Source: an uncultured bacterium
GTDB taxonomy: Bacteria > Oederibacteriota > PGYV01 > CAWJRG01
Direction of reading: 5' to 3'
Length of the DNA stretch: 64,000 nt
Assembly: GCA_963845185.1 (NCBI GenBank)
Contig: CAWJRG010000010.1
Location: forward strand, 389,297-453,296
Positions 16,991 through 60,771 of the stretch are shown one piece after another. A program made the position numbers and the translations under genes. Positions within the stretch are counted from its first letter, which is position 1. Each line of letters begins with the position of its first letter. The notes under the pieces were generated by a model that saw nothing but the letters and a program-made list of their open reading frames with translations, was not told the origin of the DNA and did not search any database.

Positions 16991-18838
16991 CTATTGGCTG
17001 AACACCTCTACATACGGGTCGGCATCCGGATCAACAACATACACTTTGCCGCTGTTGCCAACGGCAATGGCCCACGGATACGCAAACTGCACCGAACTGC
17101 CCCACATTGTTATAAAATCCAGGTTTGACGTAAATTTCTGCACATCTAAACCTTGAAGATCAACGACATACACATTTCCGCTATTGTCCACTGTTACTCC
17201 CTGGGGATTCTCAAACTGCCCTGGCCCGTTCCCATAAGTTCCCCCAATCCCTTGTACAAATACTCCCATTGACGTGAATTTCCATAGCCCTTCGAGATTA
17301 ACTACATATACATAATTTCCGCTGTTGTCTATGGCTATTCCTGCTGGGAAAGTAGAACTTGTCCAAAGAGGATAACTCCACGACTTTATTAACTCTCCCG
17401 TTGGCGAATATTCCATGACATTATAGCCGGCAAAGACATAGATGTTGCCACTGTTGTCTACTGCTATTGTTTTATTGTCAGTAATACCAGCCAGTGTTTT
17501 TATGCATTCACCTGTTGATGTGAATTCAAATACTCCGCCATTATCAATTAAATAAACATTACCGCTGTTGTCCACCGTTATTCCATCAGGTGGCATATAA
17601 AAATTCCAGCCGCAGGCGCTGCCGTCCCATGCAATTATAAATTGACCGGCTGACGTAAACTCCTCTATTCTCTTATTGCCTGAGTCCGAGACATACACAT
17701 TCCCGTTGTTTTTGTTTACGGCCACGCCACCGGGAACGTAAAGCTGCCCGTCTCCGGAACCGGGGCTGCCCCATGCCGACATGTTCATTGCGGTCATTGT
17801 TGCCGTTTCCTGCGCATTCACCTGCGCTGTTGCCGTTGCCTGCGCATTTGCCTGTGCTGTGGCTGTTTCCTGTGCCTGCGCCTGCGCCGTTTCCGCTGCC
17901 TGTTCCGTCGCAGTTTCTGCCGGTGGCAGCGCTGCCGCTGTCTGCGTCGCCTGCGCCTGCGCTGTTGCTGTGCCAACCACCTGCGCTGTTAACTCTGCCT
18001 GCGCTGCGGCTGTCGCCTGCGCCTGTGCCGTTGCTGTGCCAACCACCTGCGCCGTTAACTCTGCCTGAGCCTGCGTTGTGGCCGTTGCCTGCACCTGCAT
18101 TATGGCAGTTAAAGTTGCCTGCGCCTGCGCCGTTGCGCCTGCCGTCAGCAGTATTACAGCTGTCTGTGTAGCCGGCGCCTCTGCCGTCTGCTGTGCCTGC
18201 GCGGTTGCTGTTTCCTGCGTCTGAATTGCCGCTGCTGTCTGCTGCTGCGCCACTATCGTGGCTATTGCCGCCGCTGTCTGCGTCGCGTTTGGCGTAAGAG
18301 TATATGTATCAGCCAGCACAGCGGTATAAGTACTTGTTGCGCTGTACCCTGCCGCCGCCGCTGTCTGCTGCTGCGCAACTATTGTCGCGATCGCGGCTGC
18401 TGTCTGCGTGGCATTCGGCGTGAGCGTGAAAGTAAATGTAGGCGTCGCGGTATATCCTGCCGCGCCTGCCGTCTGCTGCTGGGCTACAAGCGTCAAAATT
18501 GCCGCTGCTGTCTGCGTAGCGTTCAGCGTCGGGGTAAGCGTAAATGTTACTGTAACGGTATATCCTGCCGCGCCCGCTGTCTGCTGCTGGGCTACAAGCG
18601 TCAAAATTGCCGCTGCTGTCTGCGTAGCGTTCGGAGTATCCGTGATTGTCGGCGTATTTGTCGGTGAATACAGCTTTATTATCATTGTCTGAGTGGCGTT
18701 TGCGTTTGCCTGCGTGGTCATTATTGCGCCGACCGTGCCCTGCACATCGGGCGTGGACGGTGTTTTTGTTTTCGAGCAGGAATTGGAAAGGATTGCGAAT
18801 AATAGAATTCCGACTGCGATTATACCGAACTTTTTCAT
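16991..18838 (-). CDS. Surface lipoprotein, family member: TQA and Ala/Gln/Thr-rich linker plus NHL-type beta-propeller.
   Basis: Start MKKFGIIAVGILLFAILSNSCSKTKTPSTPDVQGTVGAI at 18838. NKRIEEFTSAG motif. Long AQAQATATAQ low-complexity stretch. Confidence 0.7.
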   Translation of the reverse strand: MKKFGIIAVGILLFAILSNSCSKTKTPSTPDVQGTVGAIMTTQANANATQTMIIKLYSPTNTPTITDTPNATQTAAAILTLVAQQQTAGAAGYTVTVTFTLTPTLNATQTAAAILTLVAQQQTAGAAGYTATPTFTFTLTPNATQTAAAIATIVAQQQTAAAAGYSATSTYTAVLADTYTLTPNATQTAAAIATIVAQQQTAAAIQTQETATAQAQQTAEAPATQTAVILLTAGATAQAQATLTAIMQVQATATTQAQAELTAQVVGTATAQAQATAAAQAELTAQVVGTATAQAQATQTAAALPPAETATEQAAETAQAQAQETATAQANAQATATAQVNAQETATMTAMNMSAWGSPGSGDGQLYVPGGVAVNKNNGNVYVSDSGNKRIEEFTSAGQFIIAWDGSACGWNFYMPPDGITVDNSGNVYLIDNGGVFEFTSTGECIKTLAGITDNKTIAVDNSGNIYVFAGYNVMEYSPTGELIKSWSYPLWTSSTFPAGIAIDNSGNYVYVVNLEGLWKFTSMGVFVQGIGGTYGNGPGQFENPQGVTVDNSGNVYVVDLQGLDVQKFTSNLDFITMWGSSVQFAYPWAIAVGNSGKVYVVDPDADPYVEVFSQ

Positions 18839-19006
18839 GATTAATTCCTCCCTTTTAATGTTTTCTATATTTTATCACTTATCCCGCTTCTGTCAAACAA
18901 AAAAGCCCGGAGTCTATGCCCCGGGCCTGTTGTTTTTGCATTTATCTATTCTGTATTCGGCATTCAGCATTCAAGCATTCGAATCCAGAATCCCAAATCT
19001 TAAAGA

Positions 19007-20179
19007 TTACGGATGGAATTTTTCGATTCTATTATTTATAGTGTCTGCAACATACACGTTTCCGCTGCTGTCTATTGCTATTCCAGTAGGCTCACTAAAC
19101 TGCCCGTTGCTTGTTCCATAACTTCCCCATTGCGTGATATACGTGCCCGTGCTGGTGAATTCCTGGATTCTATAATTGTTTACGTCCGTTACATATACGT
19201 TTCCGCTGCTGTCTATTGCTATCCACCCGGCGCCATTAAACGACCCATTGCCGCTTCCGGGAGTTGTTGCAGAACTGCCCCATTGTGATATATATGCGCC
19301 TGTGCTGGTGAATTCTTCGATTCTGTTATTATAATAATCTGCAACATATACATCTCCGCTGCTGTTTATTGCTATTCCGACAGGCTCATCAAACTGCCCG
19401 TTGGTTATTCCGGGACTGCCCCATTGTGTGATATATGCGCCCGTACTGCTGAATTCTTCGATTCTGTTGCCATTTGTGTCTGAAATATACACGTTTCCGT
19501 TGCTGTCTGTTGCTATTCCCTGGGGATGATTAAACTGCCCGTTGCCCGTTCCTAAACTACCCCATTGTGTGATATATGCGCCTGTACTGCTGAATTCTTC
19601 GATTCTGCTGTTTCCATAGTCTGCAACATACACATTCCCGCTGCTGCCTACTGCTATTCCAGCAGGACCTCTACTGCCAGCAATAGCCCCAAACTGCCCA
19701 ATGCCGTTTCCAAAACTGCCCCATTGAGTTATATATGTGCCTGCACTGTTAAATTTCTGGATCCTGTAATTTAAAGTATCTGCAACATATACATCTCCGC
19801 TGCTATCTACCGCCACTCCATAAGGATAATAAAACTGCCCGTTGCCGCTTCCCTGGCTGCTCCATGTGGTTACAAACATTACGGTCATTGTCGCTGTCTG
19901 CTGCGCTGAAGTTCCGGCTGTCTGCAGCGCAATAGCTGTTTGTGTCGCATTTGCCTGCGCCGTGGTTGTCTGCTGTGCCTGTGCCGTGGCTGTTTCCTGC
20001 GCCGATAGCCCGGCTGTCTGCAAATAAACTGCCGTGGCTGTTGCCGCCGCAGCCTGCGCTGTGGCTGTCATGTTGGGTGTGTTTGTTGCTGCAGGACGGG
20101 TAGGGGTAGGCAATTTTTTGCAATTGAATATAATTATGAATACAAATAGAATTAATGCCGGGATTAAGATTTTTTTCAT
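19007..20179 (-). CDS. Lipoprotein (MKKILIPALIL subfamily) with six NHL repeats.
   Basis: Repeats YRIQKF, SRIEEF, NRIEEF, NRIEKFHP with GNGQF. TTGACA-17-TATAAT promoter at 20326-20354 (minus). Confidence 0.75.
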   Translation of the reverse strand: MKKILIPALILFVFIIIFNCKKLPTPTRPAATNTPNMTATAQAAAATATAVYLQTAGLSAQETATAQAQQTTTAQANATQTAIALQTAGTSAQQTATMTVMFVTTWSSQGSGNGQFYYPYGVAVDSSGDVYVADTLNYRIQKFNSAGTYITQWGSFGNGIGQFGAIAGSRGPAGIAVGSSGNVYVADYGNSRIEEFSSTGAYITQWGSLGTGNGQFNHPQGIATDSNGNVYISDTNGNRIEEFSSTGAYITQWGSPGITNGQFDEPVGIAINSSGDVYVADYYNNRIEEFTSTGAYISQWGSSATTPGSGNGSFNGAGWIAIDSSGNVYVTDVNNYRIQEFTSTGTYITQWGSYGTSNGQFSEPTGIAIDSSGNVYVADTINNRIEKFHP

Positions 20180-29030: not shown

Positions 29031-29591
29031 TTATTTAGTCTTTGAAGGTCCATAATTTAGGTCTTTAAGTTTGTGTATTCTGCTTAGTTTAAATAAACGT
29101 AAAAACCAATTACATGAGTAATATTTTTTCCCCGTAGTATCTTCTGCTTTAATTACTATATCATTAAAATTATAATTTTTAAGTAAATCATATGATTTTT
29201 TATATGTTATACCGTCATTAGGTAGAATTTGACGTAATCTATCAGCTTCATCTAGAGTTATTTTAATAAACTTAATGATTTTATCTATATTAATTAATAA
29301 ATAAACATCACTTATCTTTATTGGTTTGTTTCCTTTGTTTATAACAGAAACATTAAAAAATTTTTCGATTTTCCAATCTATTTTATTTTTATCATTAGAT
29401 ATAAATTCATTATCATTAAATAGATCATCATAGCTTCCTGTCGGTTCTTCATATATTTCTGATATTTTAATCTTAACAATTATTTTATTTTCCTTAAAAT
29501 GTCTAATTTCTTGATATAATGAAATAAATAAAGCTGACGCACTGGTAAACCCTGTCCAAAAAATAGGTTGTTTTAAAAAATTAAAATTCAT
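29031..29591 (-). CDS. Hypothetical membrane-anchored protein (N-terminal TM). Last gene of the island operon.
   Basis: AT-rich; 12-nt gap to upstream gene; N-terminal hydrophobic segment FWTGFTSASALFISLY. Confidence 0.45.
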   Translation of the reverse strand: MNFNFLKQPIFWTGFTSASALFISLYQEIRHFKENKIIVKIKISEIYEEPTGSYDDLFNDNEFISNDKNKIDWKIEKFFNVSVINKGNKPIKISDVYLLINIDKIIKFIKITLDEADRLRQILPNDGITYKKSYDLLKNYNFNDIVIKAEDTTGKKYYSCNWFLRLFKLSRIHKLKDLNYGPSKTK

Positions 29592-29603
29592 TTTAACGAT
29601 TCC

Positions 29604-29870
29604 TCAACGCTTCAATAGCACAACAATTATAGCGGTTATTGCGCTTATAACTGAAGCTATTGCCGATACTAAAGTAATTATCCAAAGTTTAGATTCTCTT
29701 AATGACCTTTCAGCTTCAATTACACGTCTCTGAATTTCAGCATCATCAGCATTACACGGAATGCTTTCCTGAGAAACAGAACCCATAGTATTTACTCCTA
29801 ACTCAATTGCGCGTTTTTTTAATTCATCACCAACTAATAATTTTTTCATAATTATCTCCTTATAAATCAA
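29604..29870 (-). CDS. Small protein with C-terminal TM helix.
   Basis: 88 aa; C-terminus LWIITLVSAIASVISAITAIIVVLL. Confidence 0.4.
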   Translation of the reverse strand: MIYKEIIMKKLLVGDELKKRAIELGVNTMGSVSQESIPCNADDAEIQRRVIEAERSLRESKLWIITLVSAIASVISAITAIIVVLLKR

Positions 29871-29884
29871 AAATTCTCTTCGAT

Positions 29885-30103
29885 TCAGATTAAAAAATCA
29901 TTAAAAAAAGAAGCCGGATTTCTAACTAAAATTTTAGGATTTTGAAACATATATTTGATATCGTCTATAACTTCGTAAAGCTCGCCCAATTCATTGTTTT
30001 TATAAGCGGCAACGTATACCTTCATATAAAAAGTTTTCTCCTGGGCGTGGTGCTCGGGCCCGAACAGGGAAATGATAAAGCCTTTAAACTGGTCCACGGT
30101 CAT
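29885..30103 (-). CDS. Small hypothetical protein (72 aa).
   Basis: Tightly packed between flanking operon genes; AT-rich. Confidence 0.35.
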   Translation of the reverse strand: MTVDQFKGFIISLFGPEHHAQEKTFYMKVYVAAYKNNELGELYEVIDDIKYMFQNPKILVRNPASFFNDFLI

Positions 30104-30122
30104 TTGCGGTTTGTATCACCTA

Positions 30123-31115
30123 TTAAGTTTTTTTAGTACTTATCAGGTCCGGGTCAAAACTACTTTGTTCATTAAGTTTTTTAAAAGCTTCTACATCAAA
30201 AGTTTTTTTGGTAATACTATCAACAGTTTTGATTTCTTTTGTAGTTTGAACAGGAGCTTTTATCCACCCTTGAAATTGAGGGTTGTTTTCATATTCCTTT
30301 AATATAGTTAGTATTTTAAATTTAAGTCCATCAATATTTGAAAAATATGCACATAATTTACTATCCAAAAGTTTCTTTTTAAAGTTTTTATACAATTTTA
30401 CATTGTCTTTTTCTTCAAAATCTTTGTTTTCCGAAGTTTTTATAGCTACATACTCTTTATCCATTAATAACGTAAAAGGCTTTTTCTTTAATTTTTTTGC
30501 ATAATTATATTCTAATTCAACATAGCTTCGGCCATGTCGTTTATAAATGCTTCCATATCTTCCTCCAACAATTAACATAAATGTATCAGAATCTTGAATC
30601 CATTTCTGTATTGTTTTCCATTGTGATTCATCATTTGCTGTAAATAGTTCCATGCCGGCAGGTATATGACCCGCTTGTAAAACAGCTCCTACGGCTGCTT
30701 GTCGCTCGGCTTCCATTAATTTATAAGTAGAAGATATAAAGACTTGTATTTTTTTCTTTTGATTTTGAAGCACCCTTATTTCTTTCTTTTCTACTTGCCG
30801 GTCTATATCTAAAGGTTCTTCATTAAAATCATCTTTTGCAGATTTCAATATTTCAATGCCTTTTTTTGTATCACCAACTTTATTTTCTTTAACATTAAAA
30901 TCAAACTCTTTTAGAAAGACATTATTTGATTTAAATAGGCGCTGTAAAAATAATTTTACTTCAACTTTCCATTTACAAAAAAATACACTTTGTACTGTAT
31001 AATCATTTTTTGTTGTATCAATGCCAATTATTAAAGGTTGTTTTTTAGTTTCTAATAGCAAAATTCCGCGAGTAATAAGTGAATCAAACCTATCGTTAAT
31101 CCTATTTTTATCCAT
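30123..31115 (-). CDS. DUF4062-like domain protein with unknown N- and C-terminal regions. Candidate defence-system component.
   Basis: Central segment VFISSTYKLMEAERQAAVGAVLQAGHIPAGMELFTANDESQWKTIQKWIQDSDTFMLIVGGRYGS matches the DUF4062 signature as I recall it (VFISST..DL.eER...AGH.P..ME.F ... RYGS). 28-nt gap to the RM gene. Confidence 0.5.
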   Translation of the reverse strand: MDKNRINDRFDSLITRGILLLETKKQPLIIGIDTTKNDYTVQSVFFCKWKVEVKLFLQRLFKSNNVFLKEFDFNVKENKVGDTKKGIEILKSAKDDFNEEPLDIDRQVEKKEIRVLQNQKKKIQVFISSTYKLMEAERQAAVGAVLQAGHIPAGMELFTANDESQWKTIQKWIQDSDTFMLIVGGRYGSIYKRHGRSYVELEYNYAKKLKKKPFTLLMDKEYVAIKTSENKDFEEKDNVKLYKNFKKKLLDSKLCAYFSNIDGLKFKILTILKEYENNPQFQGWIKAPVQTTKEIKTVDSITKKTFDVEAFKKLNEQSSFDPDLISTKKT

Positions 31116-31143
31116 GTATTTTCTTTTCCTTTTCCTTTAAAAT

Positions 31144-34077
31144 TTATTCTAACGATTCCTCAACGATTTTTATTTCTTCTTTATCTGAAATTTCGTAAAG
31201 TTCATAAATTTTTCGGTCAATCTCTTTATCAACAGCTTGTATTTCATTTTCTCTATTCGATTTAGATTCATTTAATGACAATATTTTTTCTACCAAACTA
31301 ATAATTTCAACAACTAAATCTTTATTGGTATTATTTAATTTAATTATTGGTATTTGTTCAATACTTTCAGGATAAACATTTAAATTATAACCTAGAAAAT
31401 TATTAAAATAGAAGTTTATTAGTTTTGAATTAATTAATCCTAACAAGAATTTAAGTGAATATTCCCTTGAAAGTTCTATATCGTTTTTTTCAATATTTAT
31501 TTTTCTTTTACCTAAAAAAGATTTATCTTTATTTTCAATATTATATTTTAGGATTACACAACTTAATGAGTCATCTGAATAGTATTTTTTATTATCATAA
31601 ACAGCTTTAATACCTTCTACACCTGTAACTTTTGAAATAAAAATTTTTTCTGATTCAAATAATTCCTCGAAAGCTGGCCTATATAATTTTGTTTTATCAT
31701 ATAACAACCATTTATCCGCCCAATCAAGTTTATATCTACTTATATTTTTACCTTTAATCATTTTTTTACAAAAATCATTTATTTTATTATCCAAATGAAA
31801 TTGTTCTACTGGAACCCCTCGAGCTCCCCATGAAGCTATAGCTACTTTCCCCAAATTAATACTATTCTCTTTTATTTTATTAATAATACCAATTGTTTTT
31901 TTAGAAAAAGCGTCTATTCGATACATATTTTCCGGAATTTCATAGAATTCTTTTTGTTTAATTTTATCAGTTTTATTGCCGTCATATACGGAAATGATAT
32001 TGCCATTTCTTTGCGCCTGGTCAGAACACTTTTCAATTATTAAAACAATATTTTTAACAGCAACGCCTTCAAATACATTTGTTTTAAATAAATTATAAAT
32101 ATTTATTATTTTACAGTTATCTAAAATGTATTTACGTAATTTTTGGCCATAATCTTGAGTAAGAAATGGGTAAGGTATAATAAAGCCCAATAAACCGCCT
32201 TCTTTAAGTAGCAATATAGATTTTTCAATGAAAGCTATATATATATCAAATCTTTTTAGCGAAGTTTCGTAAAATTTCATATAAAAAGCAAGTTCTTCAT
32301 CTTCAAGATTTTCAACGTTAATATATGGCGGATTTCCTATAATAAAATCAAAGCCATTATCACTAAGTGCTTCACAAAAGGAAATCTCAAAATTAAAAGG
32401 TCTAATTTTTTCAATGTCTTTGAAATTTTCCTTTAACAGATTCCGGGAATTAATTTTTAATTGTTCTTCCAAAACAAGTATTTTTTTATAAAGTTTTTCC
32501 TTTACTTCATCATCTGTGGTTTTATGAAAATGTTTTTTTAATTCTAATATGTCATTTATAAGTTCTTTACTATTAGAATTGGAGCTAAGCAAAGTTGTTT
32601 CTTTAATTACTTCTTCTGAAATTAATGAATTTCCACAACGAATATTTAATTTCATATTAGGCAATAATTTTTTCCCTTTTATATTTTGATACTTAATTCC
32701 TTCTAAGGTTTTAATTACTAAATTCAGTTTTGAAATTTCAACAGCTCTTTCATCTAAATCAACGCCATAAATATTGTTTTGTAATATTTTTTTTCTTAAA
32801 TCGAAATCAAATAACAATGTTCCTCCAGCAATCCGCCTATAATGAAAGAGTAATTCTTCAAATACCTTTATAAGGAAAGAACCACTACCGCAAGCAGGGT
32901 CTAATACTTTTATCTTTTTAAGATCCTCTTCAGTCTTAATTTTTGATAGTTTGGGTCTAATGGTATTTTCAATTATGTATTGAACGATGCTTTCGGGTGT
33001 GTAATAAATACCTTGTTTTTTCTTTTTCTTTTTACCTTCTTCTTCGTCTAAAGATATACTTTTTTTACTTTTTTTAAGCAATTCACCTAAATAATTTTCG
33101 TAAACTTCACCAATGATATTTACAGATAATTTTGAGAAATTAATAGAAGCTAGTTCTCGAATTATTGGAATAATAATAGCATCGTCAAGGTCAAGTTTAG
33201 TACATTCATCTATAGCAAAAATTTCCGAATTAAAACGCTCATCCATTTCTTTAAAAACAATATTTTTTAATTCGTCATATATGTTTTTCTTTGAGTGTAA
33301 TATTGCGTGTAGTTTGTCTTGCCCAATTATTTGATTGTCGGAACAGTAATCAATAAAAATAAGCTTATCTATAATTTTTTGTACAATTAATTCAATCTGC
33401 GTGGAGTTATAATGTTTTGAATATTTTTTTAAAATATATGTGCGTAATTGTTCTCTCCAATTTTTAAGTTTTATAAAAAAATCATTCTTAATTTCTTCTT
33501 GTTCAGGATAATATACAGAATTTAAGTCCCAACGCCCTTGTTCCTTAATTAGATTTTTTTTCGTTAATTTTGATAAAAACTCAATGCCTTGAGGTGATAA
33601 TATATTGATATAATTTTTTTTATCTACCTTATCCCATAGAATTGAATGAAAAGCATATTTTGTATCATTATAAAGTCTTTTCAAATGTGTATTGAAAACA
33701 CGCCATTCAATAAAATTTGTAAGAATACCCCAGTAAATACCTTCTGCTTCACAGTAACTATAAAGTTGTTCTGCATACGTTGTATCTTGATTAGTTCCAT
33801 TAAGTTTATCACTTTTAGAAGCGTCTTTCGTTTCAATAACTTGTATAGTATTGCCTTCATCGTCTTTTAATAAAATATCCGGTCTTTTACCAGTTTTGAC
33901 TTCTTGTCCTTCATTAATGAAAATATTATTTTTTTCCCAGCCTAAAATTTTTAGTAAATCCAAAAGATAATTTGCTTGAATATTTTCTTCTGAGGATTCA
34001 ACGGCATTATTTTCTTTAAAATCATTTAATAATTTTTCAATTTTTTGTTTAGTTATTTTCAAAATTTTATTATTCAT
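31144..34077 (-). CDS. Type IIG restriction-modification enzyme: single-chain PD-ExK endonuclease plus N6-adenine gamma-class methyltransferase plus target-recognition domain (TRD).
   Basis: 977 aa. N-terminus RPDILLKDDEGNTIQVIETKD (PD...ExK). Motif I VLDPACGSGSFL. Motif IV FIIGNPPYINV. Long C-terminal TRD. About 28% GC. Confidence 0.7.
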   Translation of the reverse strand: MNNKILKITKQKIEKLLNDFKENNAVESSEENIQANYLLDLLKILGWEKNNIFINEGQEVKTGKRPDILLKDDEGNTIQVIETKDASKSDKLNGTNQDTTYAEQLYSYCEAEGIYWGILTNFIEWRVFNTHLKRLYNDTKYAFHSILWDKVDKKNYINILSPQGIEFLSKLTKKNLIKEQGRWDLNSVYYPEQEEIKNDFFIKLKNWREQLRTYILKKYSKHYNSTQIELIVQKIIDKLIFIDYCSDNQIIGQDKLHAILHSKKNIYDELKNIVFKEMDERFNSEIFAIDECTKLDLDDAIIIPIIRELASINFSKLSVNIIGEVYENYLGELLKKSKKSISLDEEEGKKKKKKQGIYYTPESIVQYIIENTIRPKLSKIKTEEDLKKIKVLDPACGSGSFLIKVFEELLFHYRRIAGGTLLFDFDLRKKILQNNIYGVDLDERAVEISKLNLVIKTLEGIKYQNIKGKKLLPNMKLNIRCGNSLISEEVIKETTLLSSNSNSKELINDILELKKHFHKTTDDEVKEKLYKKILVLEEQLKINSRNLLKENFKDIEKIRPFNFEISFCEALSDNGFDFIIGNPPYINVENLEDEELAFYMKFYETSLKRFDIYIAFIEKSILLLKEGGLLGFIIPYPFLTQDYGQKLRKYILDNCKIINIYNLFKTNVFEGVAVKNIVLIIEKCSDQAQRNGNIISVYDGNKTDKIKQKEFYEIPENMYRIDAFSKKTIGIINKIKENSINLGKVAIASWGARGVPVEQFHLDNKINDFCKKMIKGKNISRYKLDWADKWLLYDKTKLYRPAFEELFESEKIFISKVTGVEGIKAVYDNKKYYSDDSLSCVILKYNIENKDKSFLGKRKINIEKNDIELSREYSLKFLLGLINSKLINFYFNNFLGYNLNVYPESIEQIPIIKLNNTNKDLVVEIISLVEKILSLNESKSNRENEIQAVDKEIDRKIYELYEISDKEEIKIVEESLE

Positions 34078-34251: not shown

Positions 34252-34653
34252 TTATTTAATTTTTTTCCCAGGTCGCCATGTAGTTTCTTTAACAAGCTTG
34301 CCATGCTTCCACTTTATTAAGCTAACAATTCCGGTACTGCTATCAAAATCCAATTCCCAACCATCTTTAACACCTTCAACATACGGAACAATTTTATCTA
34401 TCAATCCGCTAAAATCTTTATGGATTTCACCTTCGGTTGTATCATCCGGATTCAATCCATCAAAAATATTCCAGAGGTCTGAATTAACTTCACTATTTTT
34501 TGTTTCACGTCGTTGTTGTTGTTTTAGTTGCTGCTGTTGCTCATTATCTTGCTGATACCCCAGCAAAAAAAGTGCAGTCGCGTCATTAGAGTAGGCAAGA
34601 TAACTTGAGGATAAAAATATAATTATCATTAATAGTTTTAAATAAATTTTCAT
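34252..34653 (-). CDS. Small secreted hypothetical protein with a poly-Gln stretch.
   Basis: Signal peptide MKIYLKLLMIIIFLSSSYLAYS; QQDNEQQQQLKQQQ. Confidence 0.4.
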   Translation of the reverse strand: MKIYLKLLMIIIFLSSSYLAYSNDATALFLLGYQQDNEQQQQLKQQQRRETKNSEVNSDLWNIFDGLNPDDTTEGEIHKDFSGLIDKIVPYVEGVKDGWELDFDSSTGIVSLIKWKHGKLVKETTWRPGKKIK

Positions 34654-37131: not shown

Positions 37132-39276
37132 TTACTGTTGAATAATTATTTGCTCATTTTTGATGGTTATATTATTTATTTTATATAAATCAGTACTTAC
37201 AACGCCTTCGTCAAAGAGCGAGTTATATTCATTCAATCTGTTATCAACAATTATACCCGGCAAAGGAAAACCATTAATTTTATAGTAAGTATATTTAAAA
37301 CGCGGCTCATTGTTTATATCAAGATATGGTTTTACAGCATATTCATAAGTTTTATTTTTTCTTATGCCGCTATAAACAATATTTCCTTTTTCAAATCGAA
37401 TTACAGGATTTTCAATCTTATTTACCCTGTATCGGATAAATGTTGAAAAAATCTTAAAATTATTATCATTTAATTTCATTCCATAATTTTTACTAAATTT
37501 TTCAAAATCATTTTGACTTATTATCAGTTCGTTTACTTCAACTGCATCAAAAGTGGACAATTCCATGTTACCGTTAAACATTGTAAATCCGGCATTTTTG
37601 ACATTTAAATCTATTTTACTTATCCGGAATATTTGTTCATTTTTATTAAATTTATTTCCTATTATGCACCCGTCTGATACAAGCCTAATATCTGTTCCGC
37701 TCTGGTTTTGACTTACTGCCTTAACATTTACCCCTTTGATAAATGGAAACATTCTCTTGAATACTATATTAGCTTCTTCCTTATTCACAAACCTGTTTTG
37801 CCTTTTAAAAATAAACGCATTTGTTCCATCAGGAAGCGGATACTTTGCCATTTTCTTGAAACCGGTATACTTGCCCGATAATAGTAAATCTGTTATTTTT
37901 TTTCGTTCATCAAATCTTCCGGATTCAAGCCCGTTATCTTTGTCTTTTATCAGGACATAATCTGTAAAATAAGGAAATTTATCGCTTTCAGTAACAGCAA
38001 TGTTGTATTTACCGCTTAGCACTTTAAACCCCATTGTGTAATTATTTATATAACAAAAATCCGGCATAACACATAAACGGGTTTTGCCTTTTGAATCAGA
38101 CTTAACGTCGGAAAGCATTTGTTCAATTTTCCAATCAGATTCTGATGGCCATATTTTTATAGGCCAGTTTTGAATAATATTAAAATTACTTACAATGTAT
38201 ATTGCCATGGACAAAACAACTACAGTTGTCGTAGTAATTATGCCTGCGATTTTGTTTTTTATTATATAAATCAAATAAGACGTCAATATTGCCGCAAAAG
38301 GCAGAATTGGCATCAAATATCTGCCTTGCTTGTTTTTTATTAGAAAAAAAATTGTAAGCGGCACAATAACATACATCACGTACTTCCTGTTTTTTTCATC
38401 CAAAATCATGATAACAATTGCTGCCATCAATAAAAAAATAAATATTGGATTCATAGAACCGGCCAGTGCCTGAAAACAGAGTGCCAAACTCTTTAAAGAT
38501 AATACAGGAGGCGCGTTTTGTAAGTCAGCTCCGCTATATGCTGCAAATTTTAATATGTCATATGCAGTGAACCCGTTCTCGATATACCATGCACCGCATA
38601 TAAGTATTGAGGAAACAGCAAAAATAGCTAGATTTTTCAGCCTGTCCCCCATCTTCTCCCTGTTGAATACCTGCAATTCCAATATTAATGGGGTTATTGC
38701 ATAAATAATAAATGTCCATTTTGTAAGCATTCCAATTCCGGCTGTTATACCCGCAAGAAAAGAACAGACACCCGATTTAAAATTTTCAGTTCTTAATATG
38801 AGATAAATATATATGGCTGTAACTGAAGCCAGCGGAACGTCAAGCATAAAATAATGTCCTTCGGTAATTAATGCCGGATATGCCGCTGCTATTGACGCTG
38901 CGGCAATAGCGCTTTTAAACCCAAAAATCCGCCTGGTAAAAAGAAATACTCCTGTTATTAACAGTAATTGAAATAAAATAATTATATATGTAAACCCGTC
39001 TTCGTTGCTTCCAAATACCCGCGCTGAAACCGAACCAGCTATCGGAACAAACGGCGGATAATAGCGGTTTATTGATAAAAAAGCGTCCGGAAAATCGCGC
39101 GGCTTGGTTATGCGGAATTGCTCAGCATTTTTAAGATGCAATGATTCATCCCATCGTTGCGGGGTATTATCCATCCTTAGCCATAAGACATTAGATATTG
39201 CAATAAATATAAGTAATGAAACCAAAATAGAAATTTTTATTATTGTTAAATTATTTCCTATTTTTAATTCGGGCAT
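37132..39276 (-). CDS. GT-C fold glycosyltransferase of the GT39/GT83 (PMT/ArnT-like) family. Polytopic membrane protein.
   Basis: Start MPELKIGNN at 39276 (GGAGG RBS). More than 10 predicted TM helices. DE motif (RWDESLHL) in the first loop. Large C-terminal soluble domain. Confidence 0.6.
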   Translation of the reverse strand: MPELKIGNNLTIIKISILVSLLIFIAISNVLWLRMDNTPQRWDESLHLKNAEQFRITKPRDFPDAFLSINRYYPPFVPIAGSVSARVFGSNEDGFTYIIILFQLLLITGVFLFTRRIFGFKSAIAAASIAAAYPALITEGHYFMLDVPLASVTAIYIYLILRTENFKSGVCSFLAGITAGIGMLTKWTFIIYAITPLILELQVFNREKMGDRLKNLAIFAVSSILICGAWYIENGFTAYDILKFAAYSGADLQNAPPVLSLKSLALCFQALAGSMNPIFIFLLMAAIVIMILDEKNRKYVMYVIVPLTIFFLIKNKQGRYLMPILPFAAILTSYLIYIIKNKIAGIITTTTVVVLSMAIYIVSNFNIIQNWPIKIWPSESDWKIEQMLSDVKSDSKGKTRLCVMPDFCYINNYTMGFKVLSGKYNIAVTESDKFPYFTDYVLIKDKDNGLESGRFDERKKITDLLLSGKYTGFKKMAKYPLPDGTNAFIFKRQNRFVNKEEANIVFKRMFPFIKGVNVKAVSQNQSGTDIRLVSDGCIIGNKFNKNEQIFRISKIDLNVKNAGFTMFNGNMELSTFDAVEVNELIISQNDFEKFSKNYGMKLNDNNFKIFSTFIRYRVNKIENPVIRFEKGNIVYSGIRKNKTYEYAVKPYLDINNEPRFKYTYYKINGFPLPGIIVDNRLNEYNSLFDEGVVSTDLYKINNITIKNEQIIIQQ

Positions 39277-39413
39277 TTCAATTCCTCCGTTGTGCAATAT
39301 ATACCTTGGATATAAAACTGTTCTTATTTCAAACAGTTTATCACAAATTATTTTGCGGGTTGCAGCAAATTAGACCTTGTTTTTTGCAGAACCTCGTCAA
39401 TCGAAGTTTACAA

Positions 39414-57246: not shown

Positions 57247-60200
57247 TTAACGAATCACGAATATCGTGCCCATTTTTAATATATCGGACTTTAACTTGAT
57301 TATATAATAATACACCCCTGGAGATACTGGGCTGCCGTATGAATTCCTGCCGTTCCAGTACACATCCGGAGTCTGCGCCGTCAGTGAAATTACAAGCTCC
57401 ACTGATATTGTGTAAATGTATATGTTTGCGCCGATAGGCAGGTTGATGATTTTTAAAGTCCCATCAAATGCTTTGCCGGGGCTGAAAGGGTTGGGATAAA
57501 TAATAATGTCACCAATGGGATATGGAGTAGGTGTTGGCGTGATTGTAGGCGATATTGTTATAGTGGGCGTTATGCTTGATGTGGGTGTTTGTGTTGAAGT
57601 AATCGTGCCGGTCGGCGATATTGTATAAGTTGGGGTCGGGGTAAACGTTTCCGTTATTGTTAATGTCGCTGTGTCCGTATAAGTAATTGTATAGGTTGAC
57701 GTCACGGTATAAGTCGGCGTTAATGTATAAGTCCGTGTTATTGTAGCAGTGTTTGTACTTGTGCTTGTAGTTGTGGCGGTGTATGTATTTGTATATGTGC
57801 ATGTAGGAGACTTTGTGTTTGTATAAGTTGGCGTCGGGCTGGCGCATGCGCCGAATTCCTGGATTCTGTAATTGTATGTATCTGCAATATATATATTGCC
57901 GTTGCTGGACACTGCTACTGCTTCAGGCCAATTAAACTGCCCGGCACTGCTTCCAGCACTGCCCCATTGTGTTATATATACCCCGCTTGATGTGAATTTC
58001 TGTATCCTGTTGTTGTTCATATCTATCACATATATGTTCCCGCTGCTGTCCGTGGCTATTCCAGTAGGATCATTGAACTGCCCTGCCCCGCTCCCGGCGC
58101 TGCCCCATTGTGTTATATATACACCGCTTGATGTGAATTTCTGTATCCTGTTGTTCACCATATCAGTCACATAAATATTTCCGCTATTATCAATGGCTAT
58201 GTTAATAGGTGAATTAAATTGTCCATTACCGTTACCAAGACTTCCCCATTGTGCTAAATAATTTCCGGCCGAATCAAATTTTTGTATCCTGTTGTTAATT
58301 GTATCCGCAACATACACGTTTCCGCTGCTGTCCGTGACTAATCCGTGGGGAGTACTGAATTGCCCGTTGCCGCTTCCAGCGCTGCCCCATTGAGTTATAT
58401 ATGCTCCGCTTGATGTAAATTTCTCTATCCTGTTATTCCAGCTATCCGAAACATAAATATTGCTGCTGCTGTCCGCGGTTACTCCGCAAGGATGATTAAA
58501 CTGCCCGTTGCCGCTTCCAGAACTACCCCATTGAGTTATATAACTTCCACTTGAAGTGAATTCCTGTATCCTGCTATTGTCTATATCCGCCACATAAATA
58601 TTGCCGCTGCTGTCTACGGCTAAATTCCACGGAGAATTAAATTGCCCATTGCCGGTTCCCAAAATACCCCATGCCGTGATAAAACAGGGCGGTGGTACAG
58701 CTTCCGGTGTATTGGTTGGCGTTATGGACATAGTGTTTGTCGGTGTCTCTGTTTGAGTTATTGTTTGTGTTATTGAAGGCGTTGCCGACAAAGTGGGCGT
58801 CGGGCTGAGGCACGCGCCGAATTCTTCCATCCTGTAATTGCCCCCGTCTGAAGCATAAATGTCTCCGCTGCTGTCCACTGCTACTCCGTTAACACCTTCA
58901 AACTGCCCACTGTTTGTTCCAGTACTGCCCCACTGCGTTATATACGCGCCCGTGCTGCTGAATTCCTCGATCCTGTTATTCCCGTCGTCTGCAACATATA
59001 CGTTTCCGCTGCTGTCCACTGCCACTTCCACAGGATAGTTAAGCTGCCCGTCGCCGCTTCCGGGATTTAAATATGAACTTCCAAACTGGGTAATATATGC
59101 TCCTGTGCTGCTGAATACCTCAATTCTGTTATTATTCAGGTCTGCGACATACACATCCCCGCCGCTGCCCACTGCTATTCCGTAAGGATAATTAAACTGC
59201 CCGTTCCCGGATCCAAGGCTTCCCCACTGTGTTATATATGTTCCCGTGCTGGTAAATTCTTCAATCCTGTTGTTGCTGGAATCTGCTACATACACGTTTC
59301 CGCTGCCTGATATCGCTACTCCATGGGGTTGGTTTAACCCTCCGCCCCATTGTGTTATATATGTTCCTGTGCTGCTGAACTCTTCGATTCTGCCATTGGT
59401 CCAGTCTGCAACAAATACATTTCCGCTGCTGTCTATTGCCATTCCGGTGGGGCCTCCAAACTGGCCGTTGCCGCTCCCGCCGCTGCCAAATTGCGTTATA
59501 TACGCGCCTGTGCTGCTGAACACTTCAATCCTGTTATTAATTCCATCCGCAACATACACGTCCCCGCTGCCTGATACTGCCACTTCCCATGGGACTCCAA
59601 ACTGCCCGTTGCCGTTTCCATAACTGCCCCATGCCCTGATAAAACAAGGCGCCCCGGGCGCTGTCGTGCTTGTCGGCGTCGGGGTTATATTGCACGGTCC
59701 GAATTCTTCAATCCTGTTGTTTGAATAATCGGAAATATAAATATCCCCACTGCTGTTTACTGCCACTCCATAAGGATTGCGGAACTGCCAGTTGCCGTTT
59801 CCGGGACTGCCCCATTGCGTTATGTATGTGCCTGTGCTGCTGAATTCTTCGACCCTGTCAAGAGTGGAATTATTTTCCGCTACATACACGTTTCCGCTGC
59901 TGTCTATTGCTATCCCTACAGGGTTAAGAAACTGTGCGGGGTCGCTTCCATAACCGCCAAACTGTGTTATATACGCGCCCGAACTGCTGAATTCTTCGAC
60001 CCTGTCATTGCTTGAATCTACTACATATACGTTTCCGCTGCTGTCTGTTGCTATCCCGGTAGGTTCAATAATCTGCCCGTTGCCGCTTCCATAACTGCCG
60101 AATTGGGTTATGTACACGCCAGTGCTGGTGAATTTTTCGATCCTGTCATTACCGCCGTCCGTAACATACACGTTTCCGCTGCTGTCTGTTGCTATTCCGT

Positions 60201-60771
60201 TGGGACGGACAAACTGCCCGTCGCCTGCTCCATGACCGCCCCATTGTGTGATATATGCGCCTGTACTGCTGAATTCCTCTATCCTGAGATTACCATAATC
60301 TATGACATATACGTTCCCGCCTGCGCCGACTGCCACTCCAACAGGGTTGATAAACTGCCCATAGCCGGATCCGGAAATTCCCCACTGGGTAATATACGCT
60401 CCTGTGCTGCTGAATTCCTCTATCCTGTTATTACCAGAATCCGCGACATACACGTCCCCGTTGCTGTCTGTTGCTATTCCTTTAGGGCCATAAAACTGTC
60501 CGTTGCCGCTCCCGCCGCTGCCCACTGCAGTAATAAAACATGGCGTCGGCCCTGATACTAAAGTGGCAGTATTGGTCGGCATCAAAGTAAATGTGCCTGT
60601 CGGAGACACTACAGGCGTGTCTGTCAAAGACGCAGTCGGTGTAAACGTGTCCGGCGGGGTAGGCGTTATGGAAGGAGTATCTGTCACAGATACTACAGGA
60701 GTATTTGTCATTGTCGAGCCGGGCGGCACTGGCGTATCTGTCTGGGTTGTTGTCGGTACGCACAAGCACAT
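57247..60771 (-). CDS. Very large NHL-repeat beta-propeller protein (more than 20 NHL units in 4 blocks separated by Thr/Pro linkers) with C-terminal T9SS/FlgD-Ig-like sorting domain. Probably the distal part of a longer frameshifted gene extending to 62396.
   Basis: Repeats NNRIEEFSSTGAYITQWG..GNGQF. C-terminus IIIYPNPFSPGKA...GVYYYIIKL. No signal peptide at the annotated start, but the reading frame is open upstream. Confidence 0.65.
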   Translation of the reverse strand: MCLCVPTTTQTDTPVPPGSTMTNTPVVSVTDTPSITPTPPDTFTPTASLTDTPVVSPTGTFTLMPTNTATLVSGPTPCFITAVGSGGSGNGQFYGPKGIATDSNGDVYVADSGNNRIEEFSSTGAYITQWGISGSGYGQFINPVGVAVGAGGNVYVIDYGNLRIEEFSSTGAYITQWGGHGAGDGQFVRPNGIATDSSGNVYVTDGGNDRIEKFTSTGVYITQFGSYGSGNGQIIEPTGIATDSSGNVYVVDSSNDRVEEFSSSGAYITQFGGYGSDPAQFLNPVGIAIDSSGNVYVAENNSTLDRVEEFSSTGTYITQWGSPGNGNWQFRNPYGVAVNSSGDIYISDYSNNRIEEFGPCNITPTPTSTTAPGAPCFIRAWGSYGNGNGQFGVPWEVAVSGSGDVYVADGINNRIEVFSSTGAYITQFGSGGSGNGQFGGPTGMAIDSSGNVFVADWTNGRIEEFSSTGTYITQWGGGLNQPHGVAISGSGNVYVADSSNNRIEEFTSTGTYITQWGSLGSGNGQFNYPYGIAVGSGGDVYVADLNNNRIEVFSSTGAYITQFGSSYLNPGSGDGQLNYPVEVAVDSSGNVYVADDGNNRIEEFSSTGAYITQWGSTGTNSGQFEGVNGVAVDSSGDIYASDGGNYRMEEFGACLSPTPTLSATPSITQTITQTETPTNTMSITPTNTPEAVPPPCFITAWGILGTGNGQFNSPWNLAVDSSGNIYVADIDNSRIQEFTSSGSYITQWGSSGSGNGQFNHPCGVTADSSSNIYVSDSWNNRIEKFTSSGAYITQWGSAGSGNGQFSTPHGLVTDSSGNVYVADTINNRIQKFDSAGNYLAQWGSLGNGNGQFNSPINIAIDNSGNIYVTDMVNNRIQKFTSSGVYITQWGSAGSGAGQFNDPTGIATDSSGNIYVIDMNNNRIQKFTSSGVYITQWGSAGSSAGQFNWPEAVAVSSNGNIYIADTYNYRIQEFGACASPTPTYTNTKSPTCTYTNTYTATTTSTSTNTATITRTYTLTPTYTVTSTYTITYTDTATLTITETFTPTPTYTISPTGTITSTQTPTSSITPTITISPTITPTPTPYPIGDIIIYPNPFSPGKAFDGTLKIINLPIGANIYIYTISVELVISLTAQTPDVYWNGRNSYGSPVSPGVYYYIIKLKSDILKMGTIFVIR

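Follow-up and report, generated by a model that had tools for sequence, protein, structure and literature searches.

DUF4062 proteins are TIR-like NADases that act in antiphage defence. In the Swarozyc systems, a single DUF4062 gene depletes NAD+ and aborts infection; defence requires the catalytic residue E97 and a C-terminal auxiliary region (AUX), which in KpSwz binds the phage portal (Osinski et al., 10.64898/2026.05.01.722283). According to the same study, more than half of the DUF4062 genes adjoin known defence genes, and DUF4062 is distantly related to nucleoside 2-deoxyribosyltransferase (NDT) enzymes. Evangelion Eva01 is likewise a single-gene, NAD+-depleting abortive-infection system, for which each of the changes F11A, E87A, and W162A and the AUX truncation L177* results in loss of defence (Ibarra-Chavez et al., 10.64898/2026.06.25.731849). 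In a further preprint, on NIR domain proteins and TEP1, the same Pfam domain is renamed NIR and reported to be an NADase in bacterial immunity (10.64898/2026.09.04.749371). Here we analyse a DUF4062 gene, g1, from a stretch of 64,000 nt (the window) of contig CAWJRG010000010.1 (positions 389,297 to 453,296, forward strand), which originates from an uncultured bacterium of the Oederibacteriota. The gene (30123..31115, minus strand, 330 aa) directly follows a restriction-modification (RM) gene in a low-GC islet and is followed by three small open reading frames (ORFs), g2 to g4. We favour, with a probability of roughly 60%, a reading in which the islet combines a type IIG RM enzyme with a TIR-like NADase of the DUF4062 (Swarozyc/Evangelion/NIR) family, namely g1, and in which g2–g4 are passengers.

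The DUF4062 core of g1

The g1 protein belongs to the DUF4062/NIR superfamily of TIR-like NADases, and its core keeps the catalytic residue and the other essential residues. A first-pass annotation of this DNA, made from the sequence alone, had quoted a DUF4062-like motif. This motif is found in g1, and the assignment was upheld by a Pfam profile search, which matched the full model of PF13271 (DUF4062; positions 1–82 of 82) to residues 124–206 with E=3.1e-27 and 95 bits (cut-off 24.7). The conserved catalytic core spans residues 121–285 (30261..30755, minus strand) and includes F126, the putative catalytic residue E202, and G283-W284. Residues 120–296 also match two phage protein families from PHROG (phrog_15411 with E=2.7e-49). 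The annotation had considered the defence operon which it proposed as undescribed; this no longer holds for the DUF4062 family, which was characterised in 2026 as single-gene TIR-like NADase antiphage systems (Swarozyc, Evangelion).

Homology searches returned 3157 homologues of g1, the best of which, apart from g1 itself, shows 49% identity and covers 57% of the protein (approximately residues 120–300). KpSwz from Klebsiella pneumoniae shares the DUF4062 TIR-like core with g1: residues 121–289 align to residues 4–168 of the 326-residue KpSwz chain (10wc/11cq/11cv) with E=3.9e-19. The catalytic glutamate is also shared (E97 in KpSwz, E202 in g1), with E202 falling on the position that is alanine in the E97A construct. 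The closest sequence relatives of g1 form a Swarozyc-like clade. In the nearest of these (P0003 and P0038), the match to KpSwz (E 1e-28 to 1e-30) runs through the stalk region, whereas in g1 it is confined to the core. Compared to an Eva01-type protein from a Staphylococcus aureus plasmid (36% identity over 210 aa), residues F126, E202-Y203, and W284 of g1 correspond to F11, E87-Y88, and W162 of Eva01. In an alignment of 36 sequences (A1), all 30 invariant columns are kept in g1.

The structure prediction for the 330-aa protein, which the annotation had suggested as a check, yielded a TIR-like alpha/beta fold for the core. In the AlphaFold2 (AF2) model, the predicted local distance difference test (pLDDT) score is mostly above 90 for residues 121–285. 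The top PDB matches of the model in a Foldseek search are TIR domains (RPS4/RRS1, BtpA/TcpB, SPARTA TIR-APAZ, SARM1, and AbTir), and the NDT-family enzyme DNPH1 is found lower in the list. Based on the comparisons with KpSwz and Eva01, the invariant columns, and the fold, we thus regard g1 as a genuine DUF4062 NADase family protein whose catalytic core is intact. By analogy to the characterised homologues, g1 would be an NADase which responds to a phage trigger and aborts infection. Both KpSwz and g1 occur in a defence-island setting and adjoin other defence genes, and the output, NAD+ hydrolysis with abortive infection, is presumed to be alike.

Eva01, which belongs to the pMW2 family of S. 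aureus plasmids, is a single-gene DUF4062 defence on mobile DNA, with diverse non-catalytic regions. Like Eva01, g1 may act as a single gene, and the comparison of loci, in which no conserved partner was found, is consistent with this. The two differ in that the E of the Eva01 Q/W/E motif corresponds to K167 in g1, and in that g1 is located in a low-GC islet on the chromosome whereas Eva01 is carried on an antibiotic resistance gene (ARG) plasmid. Copies of Eva01-type genes vary in integrity. The gene is intact (324 aa) in plasmid pWBG750 (L132 1501–2475) and is split into ORFs of 205 aa and 71 aa in plasmid p18809-P04 (NC_018968.1, L131 2501–3351), the latter ORF being 99% identical to residues 254–324. 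Many staphylococcal plasmids matched residues 116–220 of g1 only, so truncated Eva01-type copies may be common.

Domain order of g1

The layout of g1 was compared with that of related DUF4062 genes in a set of 83 loci (80 from GTDB species genomes, 2 obtained via protein look-ups, and the g1 locus itself). In 69 of these, an N-terminal core (preceded by an extension of at most 30 aa) is followed by 98–296 residues, which typically form a coiled coil and a small globular domain. An N-terminal extension of at most 30 aa is found in 75 of the 83 loci; the core of g1 begins at residue 121. Residues 1–120 of g1 (30756..31115, minus strand) are encoded in frame with the core without an intervening stop and make up an orphan extension which is a candidate sensor region. 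This extension has no homologue in 140 loci or among 159 proteins, apart from a weak pairwise match to P0045 (E=0.002), and its pLDDT is 34–54.

At the other end of the protein, g1 has a short tail that is modelled with low confidence (residues 286–330; 30123..30260 including the stop codon, minus strand), where relatives have a coiled coil and an AUX region of 120–270 aa. The tail amounts to 45 residues when counted from the conserved GWI motif and to 40 aa when measured by the core alignment. It aligns only to the first ~30 residues that follow GWI in the Eva01-type S. aureus protein. When a profile of the C-terminal (AUX) regions of relatives was run against g2, g3, g4, and every frame of the region, all scores were negative. 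This speaks against g2, or the g1 tail together with g2, as an AUX remnant.

In KpSwz, the core is N-terminal and is followed by a helical stalk and the portal-binding C-terminal AUX, whereas g1 has a 120-aa N-terminal extension and a 45-aa tail without similarity to AUX. Because a KpSwz-type AUX is lacking, g1 is unlikely to sense its trigger as KpSwz does. In Eva01, defence depends on an auxiliary region at the C-terminus of the core (L177* is inactive). No comparable C-terminal region is found in g1, and its 120-aa N-terminal region has neither homologues nor a confident fold. Lacking the C-terminal AUX of both Swarozyc and Eva01, g1 is a member of the superfamily but, strictly speaking, of neither named system. 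This rare domain order in a DUF4062 NADase, in which an orphan region precedes the core and no AUX follows it, is the main point of interest that is left.

An N-terminal extension of more than 100 aa together with almost nothing past the core occurs in 3 of the 83 loci, the g1 locus being one of them. The other two are orthologous to each other and were found in Flavobacterium rakeshii (L002 6001–6969) and in a Bacteroidetes metagenome-assembled genome (L026). They have an N-terminal extension of 150–165 aa and no C-terminal domain. The neighbours in F. rakeshii are a DUF1015 gene and a gene for a YggS-like PLP protein; a similar ORF of ~220 aa lies directly downstream in L026. This context is housekeeping-looking, unlike the defence islands found around most relatives.

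Genes downstream of g1

The first-pass annotation had placed four co-directional ORFs directly downstream of the RM gene, and this arrangement, which is on the minus strand, was reproduced with respect to coordinates and spacers. The spacers are 28 nt between the RM gene and g1, 19 nt between g1 and g2, 14 nt between g2 and g3 if the latter starts at its TTG (35 nt if it starts at the ATG at 29849), and 12 nt between g3 and g4. A search for promoters and terminators returned no signal above background; co-transcription of the four ORFs is plausible. When the region was shuffled 2000 times, ORFs of 330 and 186 codons were reached in 0/2000 cases, whereas an open stretch of 72 codons arose about once per shuffle of this AT-rich sequence. 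By length alone, g1 and g4 are thus secure but g2 is not.

The annotation had interpreted the four genes as a sensor plus effector operon. The check for co-occurrence turned out negative: within 4–6 kb of the related DUF4062 genes, g2, g3, and g4 were found in none of the 82 other loci (0/82). The genes directly downstream of DUF4062 in these loci are mutually unrelated, and only 7 of them code for any transmembrane (TM) segment. At the same time, ~55 other loci with a g3 family member have no DUF4062 gene, no g2, no g4, and no conserved neighbour. In sum, g4 has no homologue, g2 has no detectable relative, and g3 homologues are beside DUF4062 in none of the ~55 other loci. The four genes thus lack conserved co-occurrence, which the annotation itself had named as evidence against its proposal. 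Most likely, g2–g4 are unrelated passengers of the same recombination-prone islet.

As a gene, g2 (29885..30103, minus strand, 72 aa) is unverified, with a length that is compatible with chance. It has no family match in Pfam, PADLOC, NCBIfam, or PHROG, and tblastn found no relative in the 139 other loci or in IMG/VR; the large protein databases were not queried with g2. The GC content is 45% in its 5' half and 27% in its 3' half. The region 29995–30103, which comprises the 5' half of g2 and the spacer to g1, has ~42–45% GC, close to the level of the host, within surroundings of 22–28% GC. It may mark a joint left by recombination or be a fragment from elsewhere.

For g3, the annotation had proposed 88 aa with a C-terminal TM helix. 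The helix is confirmed (residues 53–81, Kyte-Doolittle 2.68), whereas the length is most likely 81 aa. Translation from the TTG yields 88 aa (29604..29870, minus strand) and from the ATG at 29849 yields 81 aa (29604..29849). An AAGGAG box is found 7 nt upstream of the ATG, the homologues begin with MKKLL, and the gene call on the Logan contig is 81 aa, which makes the ATG the most likely start. There are 33 homologous proteins (76–91 aa, 52–68% identity), which share the motif ADDxELQRRVIEAERSxRESKLW followed by the TM helix (alignment A2). This family is missing from Pfam, NCBIfam, and PADLOC, and a PHROG scan of g3 gave no significant match. Across its loci (L004–L006, L087–L130, L133–L140), the gene always stands alone and its surroundings vary widely: in some cases mreB and mreC, in others a pair of IS transposase genes, lie on either side, and elsewhere its neighbours are Fic/HTH genes or integrase fragments. 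Inverted repeat-like sequences flank it in L137 and L133. The family looks like a tiny mobile cassette gene, and g3 itself is most likely a promiscuous, solitary small gene for a tail-anchored protein.

XhlA and small, holin-like, tail-anchored phage proteins are comparable to g3 in size (~80 aa) and in build, with a helical or coiled region at the N-terminus and one TM helix at the C-terminus. Weak matches to XhlA (0.044), r1t holin (0.003), and DUF2951 (0.03) were obtained with single members of the g3 family, but such matches are sporadic and below threshold, and the g3 homologues lie outside lysis cassettes. After the g3 homologue in L140 (750–1402) comes a gene for a further, unrelated tail-anchored protein of 72 aa; genes of this small type may form clusters. 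The genes downstream of g3 homologues were compared with g4 and are not g4-like; the 167-aa protein encoded there in L004, for example, is Cys-rich and unrelated.

The last gene of the row, g4 (29031..29591, minus strand, 186 aa), is an ORFan. A word-index search of 5.8 billion proteins found only g4 itself, as did an exhaustive phmmer search of 1.84 billion representatives, apart from two low-complexity matches with E ~1e-4. Nothing was found in IMG/VR, and scans of Pfam, PADLOC, NCBIfam, and PHROG gave no significant match. The single-sequence AF2 model has a pLDDT of 36. Two of the small proteins had been described as membrane-anchored, and this applies to g3; the N-terminal TM helix of g4 is not secure. 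Its residues 8–27 are an uncharged stretch of 20 residues that is weakly hydrophobic (Kyte-Doolittle ~0.9 by hand count), and no 19-residue window of the protein exceeds 1.15. A membrane anchor in g4 is thus possible.

A direct repeat of ~30 nt, which reads CGTTGAGGAATCGTTA[G/A]AAT[A/G]AATTTTAA on the coding strand, brackets g1–g3. Copy 1 (31137..31168) overlaps the RM gene at its 3' end as well as the spacer between this gene and g1; copy 2 (29581..29612) covers the last codons of g3 together with the ribosome-binding site and start of g4. The copies are identical at 29 of 32 positions, and no match occurred in 100 shuffles. None of the other loci contains the repeat, nor does IMG/VR, and no recombinase is found near it. 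Read in the frame of the RM gene, which ends VEESLE-TAA, copy 2 encodes VEESLK-TGA, with the TGA overlapping the ATG of g4 (ATGA). As the simplest reading, we infer that the RM gene and g4 were once adjacent, g4 probably being translationally coupled to the RM gene, and that the 1556-bp segment with g1, g2, and g3 was later inserted or recombined between them. With the repeat bracketing g1–g3, the gene row would have been assembled by recombination rather than inherited as a unit, and g1–g3 and g4 would have separate histories.

The islet and its interpretation

The genes are located in a segment of ~6 kb (~28.9–34.9 kb of the window) with a GC content of 24–30%, while the rest of the window mostly has 40–53%. 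Based on this difference, the segment is considered a small foreign islet. Flp/Tad pilus genes border it on one side; its other neighbour is a gene for a ParB_N-domain protein. The islet contains neither tRNA nor integrase genes, and no convincing flanking repeat was found at its borders beyond the internal 30-nt repeat. The RM enzyme (31144..34077, minus strand, 977 aa) has an N-terminal nuclease region, an Eco57I/N6_Mtase methyltransferase region, and a TaqI_C specificity domain. Pfam matches are Eco57I (8.5e-38), N6_Mtase (1.9e-24), and TaqI_C (2.7e-12), as well as MmeI_Mtase and, weakly, HSDR_N_2; in PADLOC, the enzyme matches REase_MTase_IIG (2.6e-80). With nuclease, gamma-class N6-adenine methyltransferase, and TaqI_C-type specificity in a single polypeptide, it is a type IIG enzyme. 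The type IIG call bears out the proposed position of g1 beside an RM gene, and the low GC content marks the island as acquired horizontally; RM gene and g1 most likely represent a small horizontally acquired defence islet. All five islet proteins are singletons at 90% identity and are known from one 908-kb contig and one Logan assembly.

Several other features of the window were noted. A 133-aa ORF at the upstream edge of the islet (34252–34653, minus strand, 34% GC) has a signal peptide-like N-terminus and no family match. A second low-GC stretch (37132–39297, minus strand, 30–35% GC) encodes a 721-aa membrane glycosyltransferase of the PMT_2 type. Large NHL-repeat proteins are encoded at several places elsewhere in the window (16991–20179, 57247–60771). 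The source genome appears compositionally mosaic.

The defence role proposed by the annotation is retained for g1, based on its family and on the RM and island context, with the function assigned by homology; it is not retained for a four-gene system. The strongest case for such a system would be that the small downstream proteins replace the missing AUX in trans, either as a membrane-anchored sensor or adaptor or as Thoeris-like effectors in the membrane that respond to an ADP-ribose-derived product of the TIR-like enzyme. All four ORFs run in one direction, with spacers of 12–35 nt, and have no terminator-like site on the minus strand between them, g1 lacks the C-terminal AUX that its relatives need, and g3 is a tail-anchored membrane protein. 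Operons of TIR and TM effectors are an established and common design (10.64898/2025.12.03.692087), and the present locus resembles Thoeris in having a gene for a TIR-like enzyme ahead of small-protein genes, with one or two of the small proteins anchored in the membrane. However, Thoeris effectors have ligand-binding domains and co-occur with their TIR in many genomes, neither of which applies to g2–g4. A PADLOC scan of the locus gave no Thoeris (ThsA/ThsB) match, and no Macro, SLOG, SAVED, or SLATT domain was found. Together with the absence of g2–g4 from the other DUF4062 loci, the scarcity of TM proteins directly downstream of DUF4062, the solitary occurrence of g3 homologues, the lack of relatives of g2 and g4, and the separate histories of g1–g3 and g4 implied by the repeat, this makes replacement of AUX in trans distinctly unlikely. 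For the more specific version, a split DUF4062 system in which an NADase without an AUX in cis relies on g3, g4, and possibly g2 as membrane sensors or effectors, we see very little likelihood.

Decay of the locus is a further explanation, which we consider unlikely. According to this, g1 is a truncated DUF4062 gene that has lost AUX and would provide defence no more, the g1 tail and g2 may be remnants of AUX, and the islet consists of leftover fragments at a site of frequent recombination. The 45 residues past GWI in g1 compare with 98–296 in most relatives, the Eva01-type gene in p18809-P04 that is split into ORFs of 205 aa and 71 aa provides a precedent, g2 has a length compatible with chance and an odd GC distribution, and the 30-nt repeat indicates rearrangement. 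Yet the core is fully intact with all invariant residues kept, and the N-terminal extension has stayed open for 120 codons in DNA of 28% GC, which argues for selection. Stops interrupt the g2 frame before as well as after the stop codon of g1, which means that a single frameshift cannot join the two. In addition, the flavobacterial L002 and L026 share the layout with an N-terminal extension and no C-terminal domain, which can thus be a stable architecture. The housekeeping-looking context of these two genes, the only relatives with the same domain order, could be taken to indicate that g1 is a housekeeping or regulatory enzyme of nucleotide or NAD metabolism from the nucleoside 2-deoxyribosyltransferase/TIR-like superfamily, located beside the RM gene by chance. 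The distant relationship of DUF4062 to NDT enzymes and the presence of DNPH1 among the fold matches would fit. Against this stand the position of g1 in a low-GC foreign island right after an RM gene, its occurrence as a singleton in one genome only, its closeness to the Swarozyc-like clade, and the PHROG families, which show that homologues are found in phages and prophages. A role outside defence is therefore highly improbable.

Several points also weigh against the reading that we favour, a type IIG RM enzyme plus a DUF4062 NADase with g2–g4 as passengers. With their tight spacing on a shared strand, the four ORFs are consistent with an operon, and the lack of homologues is compatible with a lineage-specific partnership between g1 and g2–g4. 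The C-terminal AUX, which g1 lacks, is required for defence in both characterised systems, and PADLOC (2023) has no model for g1, for which defence is predicted from homologues. The N-terminal region has neither homologues nor a confident fold, so that its assignment as a sensor is a guess; it is the likely sensor region of g1 because the usual C-terminal AUX is absent. With the RM enzyme and g1 as the functional parts of the islet, g1 would be kept inactive in the uninfected cell. A phage-derived cue might be sensed by the non-catalytic part of g1, most likely by the orphan 120-aa N-terminal region, if characterised relatives are a guide. The TIR-like cores of g1 would then assemble, NAD+ would be depleted, and the infection would be aborted, with g1 backing up the RM enzyme as a second layer of defence.

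If g1 proves to be inactive, it would add one more ordinary homologue to a family known since 2026. The small downstream genes are not evidenced as part of the system. Should the split system be true, it would be the first multi-gene, membrane-coupled DUF4062 defence, an analogue of Thoeris on the NIR/DUF4062 branch. If g1 is active, the islet would be a clean example of the layering of RM and abortive infection within a minimal 6 kb. For the family, an active g1 would mean that a DUF4062 NADase core can be controlled by an N-terminal module instead of a C-terminal AUX, which would widen the sensor range of this effector and represent a compact new specificity.

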